DNA of 64,000 nt from a virus, in the IMG/VR virus record IMGVR_UViG_3300025849_000016, positions 32,001 to 96,000 of that record. One strand, written 5' to 3'. Shown piece after piece: positions 534-63,566 of this stretch. The notes under the pieces were generated by a model, which was given only the letters and a program-made list of their open reading frames with translations, was not told the DNA's origin and made no database searches. How positions within the stretch are numbered: the first letter of the stretch is position 1; the number at the start of each line of letters is the position of its first letter. The position numbers and the translations under genes are program-made.

Positions 534-1277
534 CTATCTAAATATTAAATATACTTGGCCGCCGGCGCCCGGTGTTCCACATTGGCTAGTACAACCGCCT
601 TGTGTATGCGATGTCATACCACCTCCGCCTGGAAATGTTCCGAAGTAACATCCTGCGCCATATCTATTCATACAGCAACCATTTTCAAACATACGTGTAT
701 GTCCTGTCATTGCAGGTCCTGGATTAACTTCATATGTGTGCTGATAACACCAATTGTTACCGAACACATATGATAAATTTCTTGGATGTATGGTACTAGT
801 TACTCCGGTACCGGCAACATTGCCGCCTGTTTCTTGACAAACACGCTGACATGTGTAGCAATTGAACCCATTACATTGCCAGTAGCCATGACATCCGCCA
901 CATGCTATAACACACCATGCACCAGGTTTACAAACATATGAGTTGTTGCCATTTTCGCAACTACTGTAGCTTCTACAACATGTTGAACCAGCTGCGCATA
1001 TAGTAACACTATCACCAGCTGAAACCGGTGCATGAAATTCTACATAACCACCTGGACTGCCACCGCAACCATATGTACAACAATAGCCACCTGCGCCAGC
1101 GCCGCCGCCTGCCCAAACTTCTCCACTTACGCCTTTAACACCAGTCGGAACTGTAAAAAGACAGCAAAAGCCGCCATTATTACCTGTATCAATGTTAGTG
1201 TTAAACACTGTTATTTCTGTAGGAGTCTGTGCGCCACCTGCATCGTATCCGTATAAATATTCTCTTAAATTAGCCAT
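534..1277 (-). CDS. Cys-rich glycine-rich-domain protein, putative tail-fibre tip adhesin
   Basis: 247 aa, about 23 Cys. NGGFCCLFTVP..V..EVWAGGGAG start and PGAGGQVYLIF end match the Gly-rich adhesin framework found in 14005..25612. Paralog of 1287..2036 and 2716..3447. Confidence 0.7.
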   Translation of the reverse strand: MANLREYLYGYDAGGAQTPTEITVFNTNIDTGNNGGFCCLFTVPTGVKGVSGEVWAGGGAGAGGYCCTYGCGGSPGGYVEFHAPVSAGDSVTICAAGSTCCRSYSSCENGNNSYVCKPGAWCVIACGGCHGYWQCNGFNCYTCQRVCQETGGNVAGTGVTSTIHPRNLSYVFGNNWCYQHTYEVNPGPAMTGHTRMFENGCCMNRYGAGCYFGTFPGGGGMTSHTQGGCTSQCGTPGAGGQVYLIFR

Positions 1278-1286
1278 TTTACATCC

Positions 1287-2036
1287 TTACTCTGAAGCAA
1301 CATACAATAATTGTACCATACCTGAACCGCCGGGAGCACCACAGTATGTACCGCTTGAACTATTACCACTCATGCCACCATGTCCTGGATAAGGTACACA
1401 GTTCCCCATAAATGCTAACCCGTGACAGTTTGCACAACCAGTCGTACTCCATATTCCTGTTGTGTGTGCATACGGTGCTCCAGGAGCAAACTGTTTAAAG
1501 TTACACTTACCGCCATATGTCCATTTTCCGTGTCCTTGTACAGGACGTATACATAATGTTGCACCAAGTATACAACCTGTTTGGCAGTTATTTAATGAAT
1601 TGCCGCATTGACAGTTGCCGTAACTGAGTGTACAACCTCCACTGCCGCCGCTTACACACAGACAGCAAGTGCTTGCTTTACACATATAAGATCCAAATCC
1701 GGTACACCCACAACATGAACTTAGACAACATGTAGTACCGCCTGCACATATAGTCCAATTGTCACCTGGAGTTACATCAAATATTTTTCTTCCGTATGCA
1801 CCTGGTCCACCGCTTCTGCCTGCGTGACAATTAGGTGCTCCAGCGCCAGAGCCGCCGCCGCCCCAGGCTTCAACACCTATCCATGTAACGTTGTCAGGCA
1901 CTGTCCATAAACAACATCTGCCGCCGTTATTTACTGCTGATGGACTACTTGCAAGTATTCGTGTAACAGTCATAGTTCCGTTAGTAGGTACATCCCCGCC
2001 GCTGCCAAATTCTAGTAATGTTCTTAAACCTGCCAT
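1287..2036 (-). CDS. Cys-rich glycine-rich-domain protein, putative adhesin
   Basis: 249 aa, about 24 Cys. NGGRCCLWTVPDNVTWIGVEAWGGGG...PGGSGMVQLLY. AAGGA SD upstream. Confidence 0.7.
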   Translation of the reverse strand: MAGLRTLLEFGSGGDVPTNGTMTVTRILASSPSAVNNGGRCCLWTVPDNVTWIGVEAWGGGGSGAGAPNCHAGRSGGPGAYGRKIFDVTPGDNWTICAGGTTCCLSSCCGCTGFGSYMCKASTCCLCVSGGSGGCTLSYGNCQCGNSLNNCQTGCILGATLCIRPVQGHGKWTYGGKCNFKQFAPGAPYAHTTGIWSTTGCANCHGLAFMGNCVPYPGHGGMSGNSSSGTYCGAPGGSGMVQLLYVASE

Positions 2037-2053
2037 TTTAAATCCTTAAATAA

Positions 2054-2704
2054 TTATGCTGAGTTTTCTGGTGATTCAGGAAATACTACTTTATGCGGAT
2101 CAACTCCTGCCCACTGTGTTGGTAATGCTCTTAGTGCTGTTCTATAAGCTACCCACGTTGCTTTTAAAGCAGATGGCATATCTTCAGCCATCATATTATC
2201 TGATCCTTCTAAAGCAGAATTTCTTGCTGCACGTAACAGATCCCAAGTAAATTCTGATTCTTTAAAACTATACGTCCACGCTCCGTCTGCATAACGCACT
2301 GTTTCAGGATCAATTATTTCTTCTGGATTTTGAGGCCAGTCGTAGCTATATGTTGCTGTAGTGTCATCGGCTAATGTAATTGTTTCAGATACTGTTTCTC
2401 TTGCAGTTTGTTGTGTATATCCGCTAATATCTAATAAAGATGCTATTACTGGATCGTCATTAGAGTTTACAATTACCTTTACAGCACCACCTGGTGTGCC
2501 TATATCTGCTCCGTCGTTTTCGTCTGTTAATGTCGGCCACATGCCTTGTGATAGTATTCCTGTTGTTTCGTCTACAAATACATACCATTTATCTGGTCCT
2601 GTATAAGTTGCATTAACTGTTACATTGTTGCTAGTAGATGTGCTATATTGCTCATCTGGAGCAGTAAATGTAAATGCTTTAGTTATGATATTATTGTTTG
2701 GCAT
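2054..2704 (-). CDS. Tail-fibre assembly chaperone-like protein with N-terminal extension
   Basis: C-terminus WDLLRAARNSALEGSD...W..YRTALRALP...VVFPESP matches the phage tail assembly chaperone (Tfa-like) pattern. Lies among adhesin genes. Confidence 0.75.
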   Translation of the reverse strand: MPNNNIITKAFTFTAPDEQYSTSTSNNVTVNATYTGPDKWYVFVDETTGILSQGMWPTLTDENDGADIGTPGGAVKVIVNSNDDPVIASLLDISGYTQQTARETVSETITLADDTTATYSYDWPQNPEEIIDPETVRYADGAWTYSFKESEFTWDLLRAARNSALEGSDNMMAEDMPSALKATWVAYRTALRALPTQWAGVDPHKVVFPESPENSA

Positions 2705-2715
2705 TTTTTCTTTCC

Positions 2716-3447
2716 TTATGCAAATGACACTCTAATTACTCCGCCCATTCCTGGAGTACCACAACGGCAAACTCCTGAACATGTTATAGCGTTTGATCCA
2801 GGACCTGCTGGAAAGTGTCCGTATCCAAAGCAGCAAGCATTACAATATGTTGTATTCAGGCAAGTTGATCTTGTAGCATTAAAAGTACCTAATTGATAAG
2901 CACCTCCCATGATCCATTTTTGTGTGTTCATACAACTTCCTTCTGAATGAGTTGTGCCTCTGATTCCCGGCATACACCAGTCACCAGCTGTCTGTTTACA
3001 CACAACACATCCAGAACAGCAAGTAGGTACAGCTAATGTAAAACACGATGTTCTACCTGGTTCACCAGATGGTGCGCATGTTGTTGCTATTCCTGATCCT
3101 GATACAAATGTAGTTTGTCCAGCTGAGCCGCCGCAGCTACTTTGACAACACCCGCTACCTGCTGCACAAAGCGTATATGTACAGCCTGCTTGTGTTGTTA
3201 CAGTACGCATTGCATACATACCGCCTGATCCTGTATATACCGGAGCTTGACAACATCTTGCTGCTGGGCCATCAGCTCCTGATCCCCATAATTCAAATGT
3301 TACTTGTGTTACTCCGTCTGGCACAGTCCATAAGCAACACCGACCACCATTGGTAACGCCCCTAGTGTCGTTTGATATTACTATACTATTGACCCCGGGG
3401 TTAGTTTGTGGAGCTAGATCTGATTTTAAACTGCTTAAACTTGCCAT
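2716..3447 (-). CDS. Cys-rich glycine-rich-domain protein, putative adhesin
   Basis: 243 aa, about 24 Cys. NGGRCCLWTVPDGVTQVTFELWGSG...CGTPGMGGVIRVSF. Confidence 0.7.
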   Translation of the reverse strand: MASLSSLKSDLAPQTNPGVNSIVISNDTRGVTNGGRCCLWTVPDGVTQVTFELWGSGADGPAARCCQAPVYTGSGGMYAMRTVTTQAGCTYTLCAAGSGCCQSSCGGSAGQTTFVSGSGIATTCAPSGEPGRTSCFTLAVPTCCSGCVVCKQTAGDWCMPGIRGTTHSEGSCMNTQKWIMGGAYQLGTFNATRSTCLNTTYCNACCFGYGHFPAGPGSNAITCSGVCRCGTPGMGGVIRVSFA

Positions 3448-33857: not shown

Positions 33858-36800
33858 TTACAATGTAATCATAGTTTTAGCTACTTTGTAAACCAATGTA
33901 TTTGCTGTTGACGGTGTAGCCAACAACTCAATATTGCCCCCTGAAACTTGTGTGCTGAAGGTTGCAAGTGCTGAACTGCCAGTAAATAAAACTGCATATT
34001 CTGTTGATTTTACGCCTGCATTATTTGTGCTATCATGTAATATTAACATTTCTTGTGCTTGATATTCGCCATCTGATGCATTATTAATTTGTATTAAAAC
34101 TTTTGCAGTTCTAAAGTCTGCCACTGCCCATTCTGCAATTTTAACAGCATTTGTACCGCTTGCTGTTGTTGTTTCAGTGTCTAATGCAACATCTTGAACT
34201 TGCAACGGTGCTTTAGGTGTTGATGTTTGCACGCCAACAAAATCAGAACTCCCGTCAACAAATAATGCATGAGTTTGTTGATTTGTTTCAACTCTAAAAT
34301 CTACACTTGCTCCGGCATCATTAATAGTTACAGCACCTTCAATCGACGCACCTTGGTCTACTGTTAATGGATTTTGTATATCAATAGTGCCAGTACCTGC
34401 TGCACGTAATTCTAAATTACTATTAGAAACTGTTGTTCCTATATAGCTACTATTAATTTCAATATCGCCAACATCAAGTCTGCCAAATCCTGTTTCAGTT
34501 AATTCGGCTGCCATTACGCCATTTGCAAAAAACTTAATAGTATCATTATCTGCGCCAGGAGTTGTTTCTGTGCTAATATATGTATCTCCATCTACATCGC
34601 CGGTGTTTTGCAAACTAATCCAATTAGCTCCATCATATCCTTCATAATAATTGTTAGTTGTATTAAATCTAATTTGTCCTTGAACAGGAGTTGGTCGCTG
34701 TACAGTTGTACCTACTGGTACTTTTATTGCATCAGTGCCATTGATATCAACACTAACGCCCGGAGTTAAAGTATTAACTCCTATTCTGTGCTCAACACCA
34801 TCTACAAATAATGTGTCTGTATCAACTGTTAATTCGTCAAGTGTTAATGCATCAAGTGTAATACTATTTGACCATACTGGAACTGATCCGTTACTTTTTA
34901 ATACATACCCGTCAGGTCCAATTCCTAACTTAGTTAAAGAATCACTATTTAAACTTAAATTACTAGCAGCGTATAATATATCACCTGTTGAGTAACTATT
35001 TAAGTTTGTACCACCTTTTGTAATAGGCATTGAACGTGTATTGTTTTCCGGATTTAGATAGTACGAACCTGACTGTCCATTAAGTGTACTTGCATCTAAT
35101 TGGCCGCCGTCTGCTGTGCTAAGAACACTAACTTCACCGTCAGCTGTAATATCAAACTGAGATTTATTAAATGCTGCAACTCCAAAATTAGTATAGGTAA
35201 CATCTCCAGCAGTAGGATCAATAGGATCAACTTGTATTTCAAGTTCTCCAAAATATTTTAATTCGCCGCCTTCGGTAACACTATCACCTACAATTGATAT
35301 TGGATTATTTGTTGCAATAGTCATACTACGTACAGTTCTTTTATACGTTCCGTCGCCGTACAATGCAGTATTTTGGTTAGCTGTACCTGTACCTAATCGT
35401 GTAGTTGAAATAGTTCCACTAACAATATTAGTTGCATCAATATTTAAGCTATTTAAACTAGAATAATTATCTACATTTTGACTAGATGTGTTTATAGTAC
35501 CAATAATTTTTACATTTTGTTCACGGAAGTTTGTTGTACCAGAATTTTCTGCGGTAATGTCAACTACTGATTGTATTGTTCCGTTTACGCTTTCAATTGC
35601 ATCATTTCTTAGAGTATGAAGTGTAAATGAATTAGTTGTAATACTACCTATAAAATAAAAGTTACCGTCAGTTAATCCTGTAGGCGGTGTTGATGAAATT
35701 AGTCTAATTCCTGTACCAGTAGCATATCCGTGATTGGGAAGAAATATTCTATTACCGCTTGTGCTAACATTACGTACTCTAAATAAATGAGTTCCATTAC
35801 TACTTGTTCCAAAGTCTACTTGACTTGCAACAGATAAAGTATATGATGTATATACTTCAAACGTATCAGCATCTATTTTCTTTACAAAATATACTACACC
35901 ATTTTCTAATCCGCCAATTTCAGTATTGCCATTTGCGTTATATTCTATAGGATCTCCGTTTATAAGACCGTGTGCTGTTTTAATAATTTGATTACTAGTG
36001 TAATTAATTTCATTGTCTACAGCATTTGCGCTAAACGTTGTTGTTGTAAATCCTGCTTGGTTAATATTTTGTATAACTGCATTATTGTCTTCAATGTATT
36101 CGTTAGTTGTAACACTTGCAACAAATTTTACATTGTTTCCAGTAAGATTAACATATAATCTATTTTCAACTGTTTGCACATCGACAGTAAATGCACTACC
36201 GCCTGATCTTCCACCTAAGTTAGCATCACTTGCGCTAAGAGTATCGCCTGTTGTATACCCAGTGCCGCCTCTAGTTAGATCGACTACAGTAACAACACCT
36301 GTTCCGTCAACTGTAATGTCAGCTTTTGCTCCACTACCGGTGCCGCCTGTTAATGGTACATTTATATATGTACCTGCTGAGCCGTATCCACTACCGCTAG
36401 GCAACGTATTTGTATTTGTAAATGTAGCAACGCCTTCTCTATATTCTACAATTGTACCTTCTGCAAGTGTATTTGCTCCTGTTACATCTGTACCATTTAC
36501 AAAATTATGTATTGTACTATCATCAGGATCATCGATTATTAAGAATTGACTTTCACTGTCATTTGATAAGAAATAATTGTCCTGTGCATCAACACTACCA
36601 GTTGTAGCTGTTGGATAAACATTCAACGCACCTGTTGTACTTCCGCTAAGTGTATCTGCTACGTTTGTTGTAAACGTACCGCTAACATTTACAAGAGTAA
36701 TGCTTGTATCTGAGCTTACCGCAGCTTTAACTTCACCTGTTGCTCCGCTATTTGCTTGCGTTATTGTTTCACCTTTTACAACAGATGTAGCTGTATCAAC

Positions 36801-39800
36801 TGTTAAAACTTCTTGAGTATATGCTTCAATAACATTGTCGCCTGATAATACTTCGTCAGCAGGAATATTTTCAAATAAAGTTAATCTTTCTTCAAATTTA
36901 TCTAAAGTAAAACTACTGTTTGTTCTAATAGGCGGTATTAAGTCGCTGTTAATTTTACCAGAACTATTTAATTGTACAACAGCACCCGGCACACTTGAAG
37001 ACGTAACTTGTTTATCTAAGAAATCTCCTAGTCTGTTGTTCATAAAGGTTCGTTGAGCTAACTGGGTAGTTAATCTACCATGACTTGCTCCGCCTGGGTC
37101 ATTATCACCTAGTGTAACATCTGTAGATATAGCTTCAATAGTTACATCTGATAAACTTAATTGTAAACTATCTAACTGAGCAATAGAAACTTTGTTTGTA
37201 AATGTAACATTACCTGTTCTATTTTGAGCTGTAATGAATTTACCAACTTTAAAATCACCTAGTTCTGTTGTACCTGAAGTATATACTCTTCCAGGCAAAT
37301 CTTCGTATTGTTCATAATCAGGAATACTCTGGCCGCCATTGATTGGCATAGCGTTATAATCTGTACCGGACCCTGCATATTCCCAAGTATGTGCAGAACT
37401 ATTAACAATAGACGGGCGATGTAAAAAACACTGGAAGCCTGGTAACAACGCAATATTGTTAACTGATCCGCCTGATAATGTTGAACGAATAAGTATTTTA
37501 GCACTATGTAAATTTGTTTTATCAGCAACACTAGATATAGAAATATTAGTATTACCATTAGCATCAACATTAATAGTACTGCTTGCTGTAAATTTAACAT
37601 AGCTAGTAACACCTGAAACAACAACTTGGTTAATACTAACAACAAGAGTGTTAGTGCCGCTATCCCAACTATACACATACGCATTATTTGTGTTGCCACT
37701 AACTGTACCTGTAATTTCTTGACCTACTGTAAAGTTATATGAGCCTGCTCCTAATACTATAGTTTGATATATTGTATGAGCATTTTTAATTTCATTAATA
37801 AAAAATTCTTCGTCGCCTGATATAAATTTATGCGTGCCAGAAGATGTAGTGCCTAGTTCTGCTAAATTACTTAATTCTTCATCTTCATATAACTGAAATT
37901 CGTTAGTATTAATTAAACTTACATAATAATAGGTTTCGTCGTAAATGCCAAATATATCTGCATTACCATTAGAATCATATCTTACTCTATCTCCGTTAGA
38001 AAACCCATGTGTTGTAATAACAAATTTATTATTGGCTATATCTACTGTACTGCTATTTGCACTAAATGTTTTTGTTGTAGTGCTTGTTTTGTAATCATCA
38101 GTAACATCATCTCCGTTACTGTTTACAAATCTTGTAATGTAGTGTTCTGTTACTGCCCTGTCAAACCCTATTAAATCGAATGTTTGGAATACTCCGTCAA
38201 CGCCATTTGTTGCTATTATTCCTCTATCAAATTCAAATGCTTCGCTCCTAAAGCCACTTGCTCTTAGTGCGTAAGTACCAAAGTTTGTTGCAGAGTTTGT
38301 AATTGATAAGTAGCCGCCGCTTTGAGCATAAGAACCATTTTTACAAAAAATCTGGAAACAACTAACAATTTGTGAATATGCATTATTTGATACTCTATAA
38401 CCAGTTCCTCCAAAAGATAAGATAGTAAATGCGTTACCAACAATACTTGGATTTTGTACTGGCGCTGCGCCTGCAACAGGATTTTCAGCTTCTAATTGAT
38501 TAACAGGAGTATTTGGTTGGAATACTTTTGACCCATCTACATTACACCCGTTTCCTCCTAAAAAACTAATGATAGAACAGTTTTGTACATAAGGTGAAGC
38601 TGTAATTATTGTTTTTTGTATAGGTAACCCTGGATACGAATGTCTACTCACACCATGGTCGTCTGGATCATCAAATGCTACAGCAAAATTATATGTTCCT
38701 GTAGGTATTCCGTTTGCATCTAGTTTATCTCTAAATGTAAATCCGCTCATATACGCTGCATTACGAATACGGAAAATATCTTTTTGAACATTTTGAGGAC
38801 GTATAACTACAGAGCGCAACGCATCGCCCATTATAGAAACGTTGTCTGGTACGACAATAGGATTGTCTTCTAAATATTCTCCAGTGCCTATTTTAATAGA
38901 TACAAGATTAACAGTAAAAGTTCCATAAACTATTGCACTGGCCTGTCCTATACCTAGATCAAGAATAGTAATTGTTTCGTCCCATAAATCGTCGTGAGCA
39001 GTTTTCGAACTTGCGCCGTCGTCATATGTATTATTTGTTACTTGTGTAACAGTTGTTTGGAAAGGAGCATTAGCATTGCCGTCTTGATCATCAGTTAATG
39101 CAATATTTCTAATAATATCACCTGCGATATGTTTTGCATACTCTAACGCCGCAACAGTTTGTGGTTTTTGATTATCAATTACTTCTTGCGTAGATGTTGT
39201 TCCTAAATAATACTTTTTACCAGCTTCAATAGATTTACTATTACCACCAAATTTTAAATCGTATATTACTGCGTCAACAATATATCCTACATCTCTTTCA
39301 CAAGTTGTACTGTTATAAGTAAAGCCACTCCATATTCCGCCTGCATTTGCAACTTGATATGTAATGTATGCTATAACTTCTTTTTGTATAAACGTTTTGT
39401 TTAATGTTAAAAGTTGAATCGCATCATTTTTTGTGTCAGTAACTGTAACTTTTGGCACATAAACATTTTCACTAGCAATTTCACATGCTTTCTTAATGCT
39501 TGCTACGGGCTTTATAAATCCATCATTACTGTCACTACCTGCAACACTATCAACATAGATCATGTTTGAAGTGATGCCAGGATTCTCAAAACTTAGTGTT
39601 CCAGATCCGTCTGTAGTGATAACTTGCCCGGGCGCACCTGCTGTAGGTGGAAGTTTAAAATCATAGGTGCTAGTAATACTTTCAGGTACTTTAATTACAA
39701 CACCGTTAGTTCCGTTTGCACTAGCTTCTCTAATTGTAATAGAATCATTATCTTCAATGACAACAGGAACTTTAATATTCATTGCTGCGTTTGCAACTTC

Positions 39801-40040
39801 AACAACATTAGATCCGTCTGCTTCTAATACAATTTTACCGTTTGCACCGCTTTCGTCAATGCTTACACTAGTGTCACCGTCGTGTATTTGTTTTGTAATT
39901 TCTCTAACTGAACTGTCAGATTTTTTCATAAACAGTTTACCATCAGCAGTATTAAGAGCTAATTGCCCTTCATCCATTTGTCCTGCTGTTGGTGCTCTAC
40001 CTGCAACACTAGAGCGGAGATGCTTAATCTTACTTGCCAT
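33858..40040 (-). CDS. Tail fibre/spike with T4 gp37-type N-terminus, beta-helix domain and helical CxRD insert
   Basis: LRSSVAGRAP.A....EGQLALN..DGKLF.K resembles the T4 gp37 start. IYVDSVAGSDSNDG...SIKKA / GTGEYLEDNPI form a beta-helix cap. Three HG...G....Y barrel repeats. C-terminal FRTAKVLIQI...EMLILHD...EYA domain. Confidence 0.8.
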   Translation of the reverse strand: MASKIKHLRSSVAGRAPTAGQMDEGQLALNTADGKLFMKKSDSSVREITKQIHDGDTSVSIDESGANGKIVLEADGSNVVEVANAAMNIKVPVVIEDNDSITIREASANGTNGVVIKVPESITSTYDFKLPPTAGAPGQVITTDGSGTLSFENPGITSNMIYVDSVAGSDSNDGFIKPVASIKKACEIASENVYVPKVTVTDTKNDAIQLLTLNKTFIQKEVIAYITYQVANAGGIWSGFTYNSTTCERDVGYIVDAVIYDLKFGGNSKSIEAGKKYYLGTTSTQEVIDNQKPQTVAALEYAKHIAGDIIRNIALTDDQDGNANAPFQTTVTQVTNNTYDDGASSKTAHDDLWDETITILDLGIGQASAIVYGTFTVNLVSIKIGTGEYLEDNPIVVPDNVSIMGDALRSVVIRPQNVQKDIFRIRNAAYMSGFTFRDKLDANGIPTGTYNFAVAFDDPDDHGVSRHSYPGLPIQKTIITASPYVQNCSIISFLGGNGCNVDGSKVFQPNTPVNQLEAENPVAGAAPVQNPSIVGNAFTILSFGGTGYRVSNNAYSQIVSCFQIFCKNGSYAQSGGYLSITNSATNFGTYALRASGFRSEAFEFDRGIIATNGVDGVFQTFDLIGFDRAVTEHYITRFVNSNGDDVTDDYKTSTTTKTFSANSSTVDIANNKFVITTHGFSNGDRVRYDSNGNADIFGIYDETYYYVSLINTNEFQLYEDEELSNLAELGTTSSGTHKFISGDEEFFINEIKNAHTIYQTIVLGAGSYNFTVGQEITGTVSGNTNNAYVYSWDSGTNTLVVSINQVVVSGVTSYVKFTASSTINVDANGNTNISISSVADKTNLHSAKILIRSTLSGGSVNNIALLPGFQCFLHRPSIVNSSAHTWEYAGSGTDYNAMPINGGQSIPDYEQYEDLPGRVYTSGTTELGDFKVGKFITAQNRTGNVTFTNKVSIAQLDSLQLSLSDVTIEAISTDVTLGDNDPGGASHGRLTTQLAQRTFMNNRLGDFLDKQVTSSSVPGAVVQLNSSGKINSDLIPPIRTNSSFTLDKFEERLTLFENIPADEVLSGDNVIEAYTQEVLTVDTATSVVKGETITQANSGATGEVKAAVSSDTSITLVNVSGTFTTNVADTLSGSTTGALNVYPTATTGSVDAQDNYFLSNDSESQFLIIDDPDDSTIHNFVNGTDVTGANTLAEGTIVEYREGVATFTNTNTLPSGSGYGSAGTYINVPLTGGTGSGAKADITVDGTGVVTVVDLTRGGTGYTTGDTLSASDANLGGRSGGSAFTVDVQTVENRLYVNLTGNNVKFVASVTTNEYIEDNNAVIQNINQAGFTTTTFSANAVDNEINYTSNQIIKTAHGLINGDPIEYNANGNTEIGGLENGVVYFVKKIDADTFEVYTSYTLSVASQVDFGTSSNGTHLFRVRNVSTSGNRIFLPNHGYATGTGIRLISSTPPTGLTDGNFYFIGSITTNSFTLHTLRNDAIESVNGTIQSVVDITAENSGTTNFREQNVKIIGTINTSSQNVDNYSSLNSLNIDATNIVSGTISTTRLGTGTANQNTALYGDGTYKRTVRSMTIATNNPISIVGDSVTEGGELKYFGELEIQVDPIDPTAGDVTYTNFGVAAFNKSQFDITADGEVSVLSTADGGQLDASTLNGQSGSYYLNPENNTRSMPITKGGTNLNSYSTGDILYAASNLSLNSDSLTKLGIGPDGYVLKSNGSVPVWSNSITLDALTLDELTVDTDTLFVDGVEHRIGVNTLTPGVSVDINGTDAIKVPVGTTVQRPTPVQGQIRFNTTNNYYEGYDGANWISLQNTGDVDGDTYISTETTPGADNDTIKFFANGVMAAELTETGFGRLDVGDIEINSSYIGTTVSNSNLELRAAGTGTIDIQNPLTVDQGASIEGAVTINDAGASVDFRVETNQQTHALFVDGSSDFVGVQTSTPKAPLQVQDVALDTETTTASGTNAVKIAEWAVADFRTAKVLIQINNASDGEYQAQEMLILHDSTNNAGVKSTEYAVLFTGSSALATFSTQVSGGNIELLATPSTANTLVYKVAKTMITL

Positions 40041-40060
40041 TTTTCAATCCTATATAGTAT

Positions 40061-40090
40061 GGGTCAGGTCCTAAGACGCCCGGTGGTCAA
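40061..40090 (-). promoter_or_regulatory. GC-rich element in the late 5' leader (candidate RNA structure)
   Basis: UUGACCACC-GGGC-GUC-UUAG-GAC-CUGA-CCC followed by the palindrome CUAUAUAG, between promoter and SD. Confidence 0.45.
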
Positions 40091-40102
40091 AAGTTGTTAT
40101 TG

Positions 40103-40110
40103 TATTTATT
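40103..40110 (-). promoter_or_regulatory. T4-like late promoter core AATAAATA(CAATA)
   Basis: Intergenic, just after the stop of 40115..50875. Confidence 0.7.
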
Positions 40111-40114
40111 GCAT

Positions 40115-59458: not shown

Positions 59459-62400
59459 TTACGATATCGAAAGTGCTGTAACACTTTCGCCTGCTGCTAA
59501 TGCTATTCTTACTAACACAACGTTACCTGTTGCATCTGTCATGTTTGCTGTACCTAGTGTCATCGAAAACGATCCACTAAGTGATTGCCCTGGAATTATT
59601 CTTTCACCTGGGTTTACTGCACACCCATTTGTGTTTGTAGGTGATCCTGATGCACCCGGAAGTCCTACACCATTATAAACTCCTGCACACTCTAACCAGC
59701 CGTTGATTGTACTACTACCATCAATTCCTGATCCAGGAGCAGCAATGAAAACACCTGTTACACCTGTTGAACTTGTAATATTAATATCAAAGTTTGCAAC
59801 AACTTGACGTCTAAATGCCATTGTAAAATATTGTGTACCTGTATCGCTACTTCTGTCTGGTCCTACTGGTAATAAGACACTAAAATCATCAATGTTATGT
59901 TCTAGCACACCGTACCTTATTGTTGCTTCTTGTGTTCCAGCTACGCCAGGATCTGCTGATTCAGTATATATGCTATTTGTATAAAAGTTTGTTGAACTAT
60001 TGTATGCAGGAGTGTTTGTTGTATCTGCGTTAAAGTCAAATATTCTTACAGCATCATCACTAAAGCCTGTACCTAAACTTGCACTTACGTCGATTGCAGT
60101 TTCATTTATTCCTGATTGTGATGCACTATGGACTTGAATTACTTCTGGTAAGCTAACATATGAACTATATCCATTAACATTACGGACTCTATATCTTAGT
60201 TGCTCTGAAACTCTTGTATTGCTTGCATTAATATTAACAACTAAATCTCCAAAGGCATATGCTCCACCTACACCTGTATCTGCATTAGGTATGCCTCCTG
60301 TTAACATTGAGGGTGTTCCGTCTACATCGCTATAATCAAAGTTTTGTTCTACGATACCGCTACCACTTCCTTCAGTATCTGTTCCGCTTGTAACTTCTAC
60401 AACATCAGATATGTTTGCATATGTTTGACCAACTAAGTTAGTTGCTGTTGTTCCACTAAGTGTTAAACTTGCACCTGTGTTGTAATGAGGTACTCCGCTA
60501 ACATAACGAAGAGTTCCGGCTACATTTTCTGTTAGGGTGCCGCCTGTTGCAGTAGGATTAGTAGTGATATCGTCTTTAACAAATACTACTGTGTTTGTAT
60601 CACCAGTAGCATCATGGCTAAGTTGAAAACTATTAATGCCTTTCGGAGTAGATGCATTAGATTTACTTACACGAGCTTTGAACCCGCTGTATAGTCCTGG
60701 ATGGTATATACTAGAAGAAAAACTTGTAGAGCTGCCACCTGCATTTAGCAAGTTGTAGTCTTGTTCATCTGTAATTGTTACACTGTCTGTTGTACCTGTG
60801 TTATCAGCTGCACTTAATCCTATTGCTCCGTCGGCTGTACCGTTGACTATAGCACTTAATGTTCCTGCTGCTGCATTATATGCAAATGTACTTGTAGCAC
60901 TAGTCTGAATATTACCAGCTGCACTTTCTATTCTAGATATATTGTCACCTGCATTTAATCCAGATGTACCGCTTGTGTTGTCAGTTGCACTAGCTGCAAG
61001 TTTAGGACTTGTACCTTGTGTGCCTGTGATACTAATAGTTTTTGTGCTTAGTCCTTGCGGAGCAGCAATATTTGGATCATAGACTTTTAAGCTAGTAGTT
61101 GTTGACAATGGAAATATACCAGGTGTAGCAGTTGTATGCGTTAACAAAGTAAGTGTTAATGTATCATTGCCGGTACCTGTGTTTGTAGCAGCGCCCCAAG
61201 TATGTTGCAATCTGCTTCCTGATACTCCGCCTGGATCGCTATCACTAGCAATGCTGTCTAGTGACGAACCATCACCCCAGTTCATTGAATAGGTAACAGC
61301 AGCCATTGTTGTGTTTGTTGTTATGTTTTGTAAGTATAAGCTATCACCTTCAATAACGTATTTGTCATTACCGGTAATAGCACTGCCACCCGATGCTGCT
61401 CTGTAAAGGCCAAATGCCATAACAGGATCTGCTGTGTAAATTATTACATAATCTTCCTGAGTAGCACTAGCTTCGCTACCATAACCAGTACCATTATTAT
61501 TAAACGCACGTACAATTACAGTATATGGTGATCCTGTATTACTTGTATATGTATGACTAGGTGTACTGTCAGTAGTGTTTAATGTTACATCACCGTCGCC
61601 CCATGTAATATCGTATCTATTTGAATTACCGTCTACTGTTAAGTTTAATGTAACTGTTAACCCTTCACCGCCTGCTAATGGTGATCCAGTAAATGATACA
61701 CTTCTTACAAAAGTGTTGTTAGCAACATTACGCATTGTTTCGTTAAGTTGATCAAATGCTTCGGCTATATCTTCTGCAGGATCCAATCCAACATACGCTC
61801 CGTCGGTATATGTTCCGTCTGATGGTGTTCCGACAACAATTTGATCACCTATCAAAGATGAAACAGTGTTACCTATGTTTGTATCTACATATGCTTTTAC
61901 ACTTTGTTGTGTTGCTAATGCTGATGCACTATCACTTACAAGATCGTCTTCGTCTAATATATTATCAATTGATACACCTGCATTAACTCTAAAGTTGCCT
62001 TGTACTTGTATTTGTCCTGTACCAGCTGCGGAAAATGTTAAATCACTGTTACTTGCTGTAGTTTGAATAGTGTTACCGTCAATAAGAATGTCATCATCTA
62101 TAGTAACTGCTCCTATAGATAAGTCAGCTTGTACAATAACCTTTCCAGTGCCAGCAGTTTTAATAAAAATATCGCTGTTTGACTGTGTTGTTTGTAAGGT
62201 GTCGCCTGTAATTAATAAGTTTGCATCAATTAATGCACTTTCAGCTTCTGTTAATCCGCCAAGTTCACCTACAAGCTCGCCTTCGGGCAATTGAAATACT
62301 TGTAAACTACCATTACCAGAATCTTTCAATTCTATATTACCTAGTGTAATAGTTTGACCAGATAGATAAATGTCACGCCATCTTTTGTCTATAGAACCTA

Positions 62401-62857
62401 AGTCATATGTTTCTGTAGTATCTGGAAGTATATGACTTGCTATATCTGCATTAATTGTAATACTATCTGTATCTGCATCACCTAATGTTAAATTACCGTC
62501 AGCAGTAATGCTTCCAGTAGCATGTATGTCACCTGTTACTTCTACGTTACCATTTAAATTAATAAAATCTGTAGCTGTAGCAGGTGCAACATTAACATCA
62601 CCTACTGTTGTTGTAATTAAACTATTATTTAGAGAAAGATCGTCTACAAGTAAAGAACCTGAACGAATGTCGGTTGCATTAATTGTTCCTGTAACGTCTA
62701 GTTCATATCCAGGTGAACCGTTTATAATACCAATTTTAGGATTCGCTGGGTCTGATGTTACATCAAAGTAAATTAAATTACTATTAATAGCTAGGTCCTC
62801 ATCACGTAAGAGATTACTCTTAAGTAACGGACCTGAAATTCTTCCTACGTTGGCCAC
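59459..62857 (-). CDS. Tail-fibre/structural protein (1132 aa) with PKD-like domains
   Basis: GTG start 5 nt after a GAGGAG SD. ITWGDG...PSHTY. C-terminal region collinear with 50880..59447. Confidence 0.8.
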   Translation of the reverse strand: MANVGRISGPLLKSNLLRDEDLAINSNLIYFDVTSDPANPKIGIINGSPGYELDVTGTINATDIRSGSLLVDDLSLNNSLITTTVGDVNVAPATATDFINLNGNVEVTGDIHATGSITADGNLTLGDADTDSITINADIASHILPDTTETYDLGSIDKRWRDIYLSGQTITLGNIELKDSGNGSLQVFQLPEGELVGELGGLTEAESALIDANLLITGDTLQTTQSNSDIFIKTAGTGKVIVQADLSIGAVTIDDDILIDGNTIQTTASNSDLTFSAAGTGQIQVQGNFRVNAGVSIDNILDEDDLVSDSASALATQQSVKAYVDTNIGNTVSSLIGDQIVVGTPSDGTYTDGAYVGLDPAEDIAEAFDQLNETMRNVANNTFVRSVSFTGSPLAGGEGLTVTLNLTVDGNSNRYDITWGDGDVTLNTTDSTPSHTYTSNTGSPYTVIVRAFNNNGTGYGSEASATQEDYVIIYTADPVMAFGLYRAASGGSAITGNDKYVIEGDSLYLQNITTNTTMAAVTYSMNWGDGSSLDSIASDSDPGGVSGSRLQHTWGAATNTGTGNDTLTLTLLTHTTATPGIFPLSTTTSLKVYDPNIAAPQGLSTKTISITGTQGTSPKLAASATDNTSGTSGLNAGDNISRIESAAGNIQTSATSTFAYNAAAGTLSAIVNGTADGAIGLSAADNTGTTDSVTITDEQDYNLLNAGGSSTSFSSSIYHPGLYSGFKARVSKSNASTPKGINSFQLSHDATGDTNTVVFVKDDITTNPTATGGTLTENVAGTLRYVSGVPHYNTGASLTLSGTTATNLVGQTYANISDVVEVTSGTDTEGSGSGIVEQNFDYSDVDGTPSMLTGGIPNADTGVGGAYAFGDLVVNINASNTRVSEQLRYRVRNVNGYSSYVSLPEVIQVHSASQSGINETAIDVSASLGTGFSDDAVRIFDFNADTTNTPAYNSSTNFYTNSIYTESADPGVAGTQEATIRYGVLEHNIDDFSVLLPVGPDRSSDTGTQYFTMAFRRQVVANFDINITSSTGVTGVFIAAPGSGIDGSSTINGWLECAGVYNGVGLPGASGSPTNTNGCAVNPGERIIPGQSLSGSFSMTLGTANMTDATGNVVLVRIALAAGESVTALSIS

Positions 62858-62869
62858 ATCAGCTCCTCA

Positions 62870-62954
62870 ATAAACGGCGATCCTGTCGCTCCAACCACCT
62901 TACCTTGCGGGTTGACCACAGTTTGACCTGCAACTTAGACCAACTACGTTGCAT
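62870..62954 (-). ncRNA. Candidate structured cis-regulatory 5' leader RNA
   Basis: Non-coding and GC-rich, between late promoter and SD. Stems UGCAAC/GUUGCA, UGUGG/CCGCA or UCAACC/GGUUGG, and GCGA/UCGC. Confidence 0.5.
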
Positions 62955-62960
62955 TAATAG

Positions 62961-62968
62961 TATTTATC
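62961..62968 (-). promoter_or_regulatory. T4-like late promoter core GATAAATA
   Basis: Immediately downstream of a terminator, heading the three-gene giant-fibre unit. Confidence 0.75.
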
Positions 62969-62973
62969 CAATC

Positions 62974-63003
62974 AAAAAAATAAGAGCTAATAAGCCCTTA
63001 TTT
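62974..63003 (-). terminator. Rho-independent terminator
   Basis: AATAAGGGCT-TATT-AGCTCTTATT stem-loop (one G.U pair) running into a T7 tract, 3' of 63036..63566. Confidence 0.7.
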
Positions 63004-63035
63004 CAAAATCATTACTTTAAAGTAGTTTAAATGCA

Positions 63036-63566
63036 CTATTTGTCAAAATTATGTAGTACTGTTATATCTTTTCCGGTAGGAGGAGCAGTTCCAAAATCTA
63101 AATACCAGCCAGCTACTTTGCCTGCCGGATTTTGTACTAATGTGTAGTTTGTTGTAGGAATTTGGAATACATTTTCAATATAAACAAAAATACTTCTTGG
63201 ATTATTAGCAAAACTTAATGGATTTTCTACGTCTTGATTATCTAATGGTCCGAATAATGTTTCAATATCGTCTGCTCCAGTAAACGTTTGTTGATTAATA
63301 GCTGTTGCTGTACCCATGCGTATCTTTTTCCAACTGCCACCTTGATAAAATTCTAATTTTCCGTCAATAGGATCACCCGGTGATGATTGTATAAGATAGC
63401 GCATCATACCTTCTTCTGGTACAAGAGGTCTAGTTGTAGCATCTCCTCTTGGTACTCTAACACTTTTAGGAGTATCTAATACAATTTCATCATTAATGCC
63501 TTTAACAATTATGCCTCTGCCATTTATGTTCTTTATATTAGTAACTTGCTTCTTATAAAATTTCAT
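63036..63566 (-). CDS. Hypothetical virion structural protein
   Basis: VP.G....RP..P..G.MRY...LEFY....W motif also in 33858..40040 and 50880..59447. IFVYIENVFQ.P...YT...F..APP.G..I is a small beta domain. Confidence 0.7.
   Translation of the reverse strand: MKFYKKQVTNIKNINGRGIIVKGINDEIVLDTPKSVRVPRGDATTRPLVPEEGMMRYLIQSSPGDPIDGKLEFYQGGSWKKIRMGTATAINQQTFTGADDIETLFGPLDNQDVENPLSFANNPRSIFVYIENVFQIPTTNYTLVQNPAGKVAGWYLDFGTAPPTGKDITVLHNFDK

Follow-up and report, generated by a model that had tools for sequence, protein, structure and literature searches.

A conserved leader RNA with an H-type pseudoknot upstream of fibre genes in a lineage of uncultured phages

Introduction

The pseudoknot in the leader of T4 gene 32 has a short loop L1, abutting stems and a loop L3 of about 7 nt, and the operator to which it belongs controls, in cis, how the following gene is translated, with a long unstructured A/U-rich tract for cooperative binding. 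In Escherichia coli the pseudoknots of the rpsO (S15) and alpha-operon (S4) leaders trap or block the 30S subunit when bound by protein; these pseudoknots include the Shine-Dalgarno sequence (SD) or the start codon. Small H-type pseudoknots with conserved loop bases are also characteristic of the preQ1-I, preQ1-II, preQ1-III, SAM-II and guanidine-III riboswitches, and a hairpin embedded in L3 is the arrangement of preQ1-II and preQ1-III. A hairpin at the 5' terminus, such as that of the E. coli ompA leader, protects mRNA from 5'-end-dependent decay. Candidate cis-regulatory RNAs of unproven function, termed manA, wcaG and PhotoRC-II, have been described in T4-like cyanophages (PMC2864571). According to a 2023 catalogue (PMC10690425), which contains more than 10,000 unnamed candidate structured RNAs from IMG/VR, gene 32 pseudoknots have no Rfam model; the element described here may already be among its unnamed candidates.

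Here we describe a leader element in a 64-kb stretch of viral DNA (hereafter the window) taken from record IMGVR_UViG_3300025849_000016, which is 106.7 kb long and has an IMG/VR completeness rating of 31%. The element, which comprises a 5' hairpin (P1), a pseudoknot (stems S1 and S2) and a second hairpin (P3), would by analogy work most like the gene 32 and rpsO/alpha-operon leader pseudoknots, and is a member of none of these families. As in the gene 32 leader, an H-type pseudoknot of similar geometry is found close to the 5' end of the leader in an mRNA of a T4-type phage, and we propose the same kind of cis action on translation of the gene behind. The two have no sequence relation, however, and the present element belongs to a late fibre/baseplate gene rather than to a gene for a ssDNA-binding protein. 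In addition, it has P3 and a spacer of 7-8 nt before the SD in place of the unstructured tract, and in both respects it differs from a gene 32-type operator. The rpsO and alpha-operon pseudoknots are likewise found at the 5' edge of the ribosome-binding site, in a comparable position relative to the start codon, but the present pseudoknot lies wholly upstream of both SD and start codon. The pseudoknot riboswitches resemble it in the small H-type fold and conserved loop bases, whereas our element has no Rfam match, an SD outside the pseudoknot and no visible expression platform. P1 is comparable to ompA-type stabiliser hairpins in that it begins no more than a few bases from where the transcript is predicted to start; this accounts for P1 only, which is dispensable in three variants, and not for the pseudoknot-P3 core. 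The manA, wcaG and PhotoRC-II motifs are also structured leader motifs that come mainly from aquatic metagenomes and T4-like phages, but they have other structures, are associated with metabolic or photosynthesis genes rather than fibres, and none of them matches the leader. A search of the literature found no such element described before fibre genes.

Genomic context of the leader

The genes of the window are carried on the minus strand. A gap of 178 nt separates the 176-aa gene from the 1132-aa fibre-like gene (Table 1) and is the longest among the minus-strand gene junctions listed. This agrees with the initial annotation of the DNA, which had described the longest non-coding leader in the window, insulated by a terminator and heading about 22.7 kb of fibre genes with a GTG start. 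All of its parts are present between 63004 and 62855 on the minus strand (terminator, late promoter box, a leader of about 97 nt, SD and GTG), and the conserved N-terminal homology confirms the choice of GTG. The terminator is a G+C-rich hairpin followed by a U-run, with no other terminator match within 58-64 kb. Its stem is kept, with differing loops, in close relatives (L002-L007), and it is specific to the clade of the window; most other clades lack it and have the late box directly after the upstream stop codon. Because most clades have no terminator, read-through transcripts would carry the element internally.

The sequence ATAAATA is also found 15-25 nt upstream of six other structural-gene starts in the window, and the box therefore behaves as the late promoter of this phage. 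It has the properties of a T4-type late promoter, that is, a TATAAATA-like box that recurs at late genes and precedes the site of initiation by about 6-7 bp; the start site of the leader was placed by T4 late-promoter spacing, which we take to hold for this phage. With other late leaders of the window measuring only 15-25 nt, a leader of about 97 nt is exceptional. Among related leaders, an (A/C)TAAATA box occurs at a constant distance in 125 of 129, and an NTAAATA box is present 36-52 nt upstream of the core in nearly all. One more late leader of unusual length occurs at 40041-40114 (minus strand), in front of a gene of 2060 aa (33858-40040); here the ATAAATA box and the gene are about 62 nt apart, and this interval includes GACCACCGGGCG..GGACCUGACCC.

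The transcription unit behind the element (62857-40115) is 22.7 kb in length and contains three fibre-like genes of 1132, 2855 and 3586 aa. No late box is present inside the unit and the next is located downstream at about 40110, in line with the extent originally claimed. Structural genes of the window match tail, baseplate-wedge and tail-fibre families of PHROG, and the N-terminus that resembles gp9 matches gp9 of T4-like cyanophages. In the gene family that is linked to the element, the N-terminal residues (about 45) are conserved and the total length ranges from 350 to more than 3900 aa, the downstream gene being just 350 aa in many relatives. A paralogous GRISG-type fibre gene, which has a slightly different N-terminus and is not present in the window, adjoins the element-bearing gene upstream in other clades. 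Its late leader is short and has no pseudoknot, so fibre genes in general can be expressed without the element. Four genes of about 216-249 aa arranged in tandem (534-3447, minus strand), at the opposite end of the fibre region, look like a paralogue array; all three of those scanned (534-1277, 1287-2036 and 2716-3447) match phrog_4205, a family of unknown function.

Table 1. Coordinates of the leader, its predicted structural elements and the associated genes. Positions are those of the window, except for the last three rows, which refer to the contigs named.
Feature	Position	Strand	Remarks
Upstream gene, 176 aa	63036-63566	-	Ended by the terminator-like hairpin
Intrinsic-terminator-like hairpin, then T-run	62977-63004	-	12 pairs; sole terminator match within 58-64 kb
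T4-type late promoter box ATAAATA (GATAAATA)	62961-62967	-	Recurs before other late genes
P1 hairpin UGCAAC-G-UAG / CUA-A-GUUGCA, loop UUGGU	62929-62953	-	Begins about 7 nt after the box, at about +1
Pseudoknot S1, 5' strand UGU	62918-62920	-	Pairs with GCA, 62908-62906
Loop L1, GG	62916-62917	-	In alignment A3, G16 invariant and G15 in at least 90%
Pseudoknot S2, 5' strand UCAACC and junction C62909	62909-62915	-	Pairs with 62898 and 62896-62891
Pseudoknot S1, 3' strand GCA	62906-62908	-	Abuts the S2 5' strand; L2 = 0 nt
Loop L3, AGGUAAG	62899-62905	-	A-rich; conserved A, G and AA positions
Pseudoknot S2, 3' strand G, bulged U62897, GGUUGG	62891-62898	-	Covariation
P3 hairpin GCGA-CAGGA-UCGC	62877-62889	-	62889-86 with 62880-77; covariation; directly after S2
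SD, GAGGAG	62868-62863	-	5' of the 1132-aa fibre-like gene
GTG start	62857-62855	-	Confirmed by conserved N-terminal homology
Fibre-like gene, 1132 aa, N-terminus VANVGRISGPLLK	59459-62857	-	First of three fibre genes
GRISG paralogue without element, L022	5895-8360		
GRISG paralogue without element, L013	1034-4237 (motif orientation)	-	
GRISG paralogue without element, L096	4110-8948 (motif orientation)		

Conserved structure of the leader RNA

The fold of the single sequence (-26.8 kcal/mol) is no better than that of shuffled sequences (z -0.43), and the case for its significance therefore rests on comparison with relatives. Leaders retrieved by protein similarity vary inside the core and were used to settle the structure. 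In an alignment of 94 distinct leaders (A3), for which pairing was compared with 500 shuffles, 91.6% of the cells of the pseudoknot and P3 are paired, versus 79.1% in the shuffles, none of which reaches the observed values. Both-side changes are seen in 11 of these 13 pairs, and pairing falls to 35-65% when the partner strands are slid out of register. The strands are arranged in the order S1-5', S2-5', S1-3', S2-3' and both helices covary, as in an H-type pseudoknot. S1, which is 3 bp long across relatives, is paired in all 94 leaders, with replacement of U-A by A-U (4 sequences) and of U-G by C-G (5) or U-A (2). S2 consists of 5-7 bp with one bulged base and shows both-side changes in 7 of 7 pairs; AACC/GGUU is replaced by AGCC/GGCU, AACU/AGUU, UACC/GGUA or GGAC/GUCC, and at the junction 75 sequences have a C-G pair, 12 an A-U pair and 7 a G-C pair, none being unpaired. 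L3 is 7 nt long in 59 leaders; in the other 35 it extends to 19-43 nt through the insertion of one hairpin or two, most of which are capped by GNRA or UUCG loops.

P3 shows C-G to G-C changes in 36 sequences and U-A to A-U changes in 29, and in other clades takes forms such as CGUG-AAA-CACG, GGGA-CAGGA-UCCC and GGGU-GAAAG-ACCC. Its end is found 16-21 nt upstream of the start codon in the 94 leaders (mode 18, in 48), and this spacing is constant although L3 runs from 7 to 43 nt, P1 can be missing and the spacer sequence varies; the pseudoknot-P3 block ends 7-8 nt before the SD. The unpaired bases A10, C11, G15, G16, A27, G29, A67 and A68 of A3 are invariant or nearly so, as in an aptamer-like core. 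The sequence of P1 differs in nearly every clade, yet 7-10 bp are still formed, and in 66 of 100 leaders a distance of 6-8 nt separates its base from the box. Its covariation (172 both-side-changed cells, compared with 78 in shuffles) was equalled by none of 500 shuffles, and it is more stable on the sense than on the antisense strand (p = 2e-8), with 88 G-U pairs. P1 is missing in three variants (L046, L123 and L309) and is therefore optional. The G-U pairs, the greater sense-strand stability and the GNRA/UUCG loops are features specific to RNA of the sense strand. We conclude that the leader is almost certainly a real, conserved structured RNA family with the structure given here.

All of the pairings that had been named from the single sequence are physically present in it, and they differ in how they fare across relatives. 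Hairpin 1 (P1) and the GCGA/UCGC hairpin (P3) are conserved with compensatory changes. UGUGG/CCGCA had been thought either to compete with UCAACC/GGUUGG or to form a pseudoknot with it, and covariation upholds the pseudoknot. Extension of S1 to UGUGG/CCGCA loses its fourth pair, uncompensated, in 19 of the 94 leaders, namely those with a changed junction base; the competing pair with the S2 partner, by contrast, is kept in all 94. As the S1 extension breaks while S2 compensates, a switch between competing pairings is not supported. The suggested CC-GCAA-GG tetraloop is peculiar to the window's own sequence (its C-G pair occurs in 1 of 94), and the AAAC/GUUU helix thought to close before the SD falls away, matched and mismatched linker-tail duplexes having equal energies (p = 0.73).

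In most other clades the P1 loop is GACCAA; the window's clade has its reverse complement (UUGGUC, 62939-62944), and it looks as if the inner part of the hairpin has been inverted. ACC occurs within the P1 loop in 64 of 94 leaders. A further pseudoknot between this loop (GACCA) and UGGU of S2 was rejected, since the loop does not covary with S2 variants (L132, L152, L160 and L201).

Distribution among phages

At least 190 related uncultured phage sequences carry the leader element. Eight viral contigs found via the upstream protein have a near-identical core with indels at the helix tips and P3 changed on both arms. When viral contigs were searched with an exact 17-mer of the core, 118 of 120 among the matches listed represent the element, located between a late box (36-52 nt upstream) and a MAxGRISGPLLK-type start. 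Use of the protein N-terminus alone as query removes the bias of searching with the RNA itself; at least 593 loci share this N-terminus, and the element is present at 74 of 75 protein-retrieved loci that have enough upstream sequence. Comparison of orthologous leaders had been named in the initial annotation as one test of its proposal, and these results reveal conservation of both sequence and structure. In the sole exception (L203, 1350-1503) the late box, P1, S1 and the 5' strand of S2 are gone and the L3 hairpin, the 3' strand of S2 and P3 are kept, which represents either a natural deletion or an assembly artefact. The model R1 gives a single match (73 bits) in the whole 106.7-kb record and, in five contigs of about 200 kb, one strong match per contig (63-90 bits). 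From the completeness ratings of these contigs (55-67%), genome sizes of about 330-350 kb are implied.

Searches of Rfam 15, which had been recommended at the outset, gave no match at gathering thresholds in the 64-kb window, and with permissive filters on 62780-63100 there was no leader-core match with E < 0.35, all being far below gathering; this agrees with the earlier remark that the leader was not recognised as a known riboswitch. The isolate-phage collection gave no match to the leader, P0002 or the fibre N-terminus in blastn and tblastn searches, and a 351-aa relative gave one weak, unrelated match in the same collection and nothing else. In bacterial genomes (596 Gb) the 17-mer occurs at roughly its estimated chance rate. 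Among the bacterial matches listed, 117 of 120 lack the rest of the element and 3 are real, on phage contigs within bins of metagenome-assembled genomes (MAGs; L250, L309 and L327). The title of the L250 record names a Dehalococcoidia bin; placement of these contigs in bacterial MAGs is most likely a binning artefact and not reliable for the host. A host clue from bacterial genomes was rejected on this ground.

Alternative explanations

It could be argued that no RNA structure is involved and that the conservation reflects an upstream ORF, a DNA-level site (for protein binding, or as a recombination arm for fibre cassettes) or chance. A 31-codon ATG ORF does span the window leader (62859-62953, minus strand), ending at a TGA just before the GTG, and the adjacent N-terminal coding sequence is highly conserved, as would be expected of a recombination arm. 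However, an ATG ORF spans the core in just 35 of 102 leaders, L3 lengths differ by numbers not divisible by three and the indels break the frame, while the compensatory changes, the strand asymmetry of the G-U pairs and the GNRA loops are specific to RNA; chance sits badly with the bacterial 17-mer matches, nearly all of which (117 of the 120 listed) come without the rest of the element. This explanation is already largely refuted and we give it next to no credence. A promoter-proximal RNA heading a very long unit in the window might instead be a processive antitermination element, in the manner of HK022 put or EAR, that permits read-through of the 22.7 kb. We consider this extremely doubtful, as 39-59 kb contains only 4 terminator-like sites, compared with 9.1 expected from shuffles, and just two of these, both weak, are on the coding strand; no set of downstream terminators needing read-through, as would accompany a put or EAR element, was found within the unit. 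Moreover, the downstream gene is only 350 aa in many relatives, and a constrained SD spacing is unexpected for such elements. There is a slight chance that the RNA is concerned with processing, by self-cleavage or by directing an RNase so as to define the 5' end of the fibre mRNA, or that the leader is released as a stable small RNA. Most clades have no terminator between the upstream gene and the late box, and the many invariant bases are typical of small ribozymes, but there is no Rfam ribozyme match, and the constant distance to the start codon together with the strict link to one gene fits a role in cis better than a small RNA.

A more conservative proposal is that the element is constitutive and has no trans-acting factor, serving to stabilise the 5' end of the mRNA and to insulate the ribosome-binding site for high, even expression. 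The location of P1 at the predicted +1 is compatible with this, neither an anti-SD nor an alternative fold is conserved, and the conserved loop bases (GG of L1; A, G and AA of L3) could make the pseudoknot's own tertiary contacts. We nevertheless regard it as unlikely: about 8 unpaired bases and most of the stem sequence are nearly invariant, which is rare for a passive insulator, this core spans clades in which P1, L3 and P3 differ freely, and other late genes of the same phage manage on leaders of 15-25 nt. Another possibility is a small-molecule riboswitch, in which the pseudoknot is the aptamer, in the manner of preQ1, SAM-II or guanidine-III, and tunes fibre synthesis to a host metabolite. 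The compact H-type fold, invariant loop bases, optional L3 hairpin and 5' leader position are all appropriate, and candidates for cis-regulatory RNAs, manA and wcaG, have been reported from T4-like cyanophages (PMC2864571). Against it, the pseudoknot does not include the SD, from which it is separated by P3 and a variable spacer of 7-8 nt, and no expression platform is visible, the S1 extension, the linker-tail helix and a hairpin between SD and early codons all being without support. There is also no conserved alternative pairing or anti-SD, nor any Rfam riboswitch match at E up to 10, and one would hardly expect a metabolite signal to act on a structural gene, so that a riboswitch seems very improbable. 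Put more broadly, we think it distinctly unlikely that the core represents a new class of ligand-sensing aptamer, tying fibre output to a host signal, or a new small self-cleaving ribozyme that cuts the fibre mRNA from read-through transcripts.

Proposed function and significance

With moderate confidence, we propose that the element is a new leader RNA that acts in cis to control either the initiation of translation or the stability of the mRNA and is probably an operator for a protein or the ribosome. The fixed distance between P3 and the start codon is the main reason for placing its action at either of these steps in cis; this tight spacing could partly stem from shared ancestry. Inspection of the aligned leaders revealed no conserved anti-SD and no SD sequestration by the leader, and no conserved alternative pairing was found when the S1 extension, linker-tail helix and GCAA tetraloop were compared across relatives. 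Sequestration of the SD by early codons was rejected, as the hairpin is no more stable than those of synonymous recodings (z -0.52; SD accessibility 0.35 versus 0.38). Mimicry of 16S rRNA, considered because of the shared CCCGCAA and AAGGUGG, was also discarded (the score of R1 on E. coli rrsH is 3 bits, and the number of 7-mers in common is at chance level, P = 0.23), as was a CsrA-type site in the CAGGA loop of P3, which is present in one P3 type only, the common type having an AAA loop. Given that there is no conserved anti-SD or alternative fold, no set of terminators to bypass, no rRNA mimicry and no conserved small ORF, an operator that acts as a docking site is the most likely mechanism.

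The first Leu codon of the PLLK motif is CTC in 100 of 129 relatives, and CTC makes up 6% of Leu codons elsewhere in these genes. CUCUU is able to pair with the SD; the recoding test gave no support for a stabilised hairpin. The window's clade is without this bias, its codons at about positions 10-11 (62827-62822) being TTA CTT.

In the mechanism that we envisage, the late promoter would give rise to a leader RNA with three modules, the optional 5' hairpin P1, the compact H-type pseudoknot and P3. P1, at the extreme 5' end, may protect the end of the transcript, and the pseudoknot-P3 block, about 18 nt before the start codon, would sit at the 5' edge of the region covered by the 30S subunit, where it could provide a specific docking surface for a phage protein, a host protein or the ribosome. 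The docked factor would set the initiation frequency of the first fibre gene, and tight gene spacing could pass the effect on to the genes behind. The element would thus act in cis on this one mRNA, as a translational operator. The cis action, its level (translation or stability) and the trans-acting partner are parts of this scheme that we infer. With regard to the initial annotation of an undescribed cis-regulatory RNA gating the costly structural operon, the conserved structure on the sense strand stands, and the gating would be a consequence of the same scheme.

Host range is decided by the tail fibres, on which these genomes spend more than on anything else. We are aware of no T4-type phage in which a late structural gene is under dedicated RNA control. 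The comparisons given above provide good support for a new RNA family, absent from Rfam, in an uncultured lineage with genomes of about 330-350 kb, and the leader alignment is a ready seed for such a family. Should a ligand or catalysis be found, the element would represent a new riboswitch or ribozyme class. It also offers a testable handle on how such phages set the expression of their fibres.
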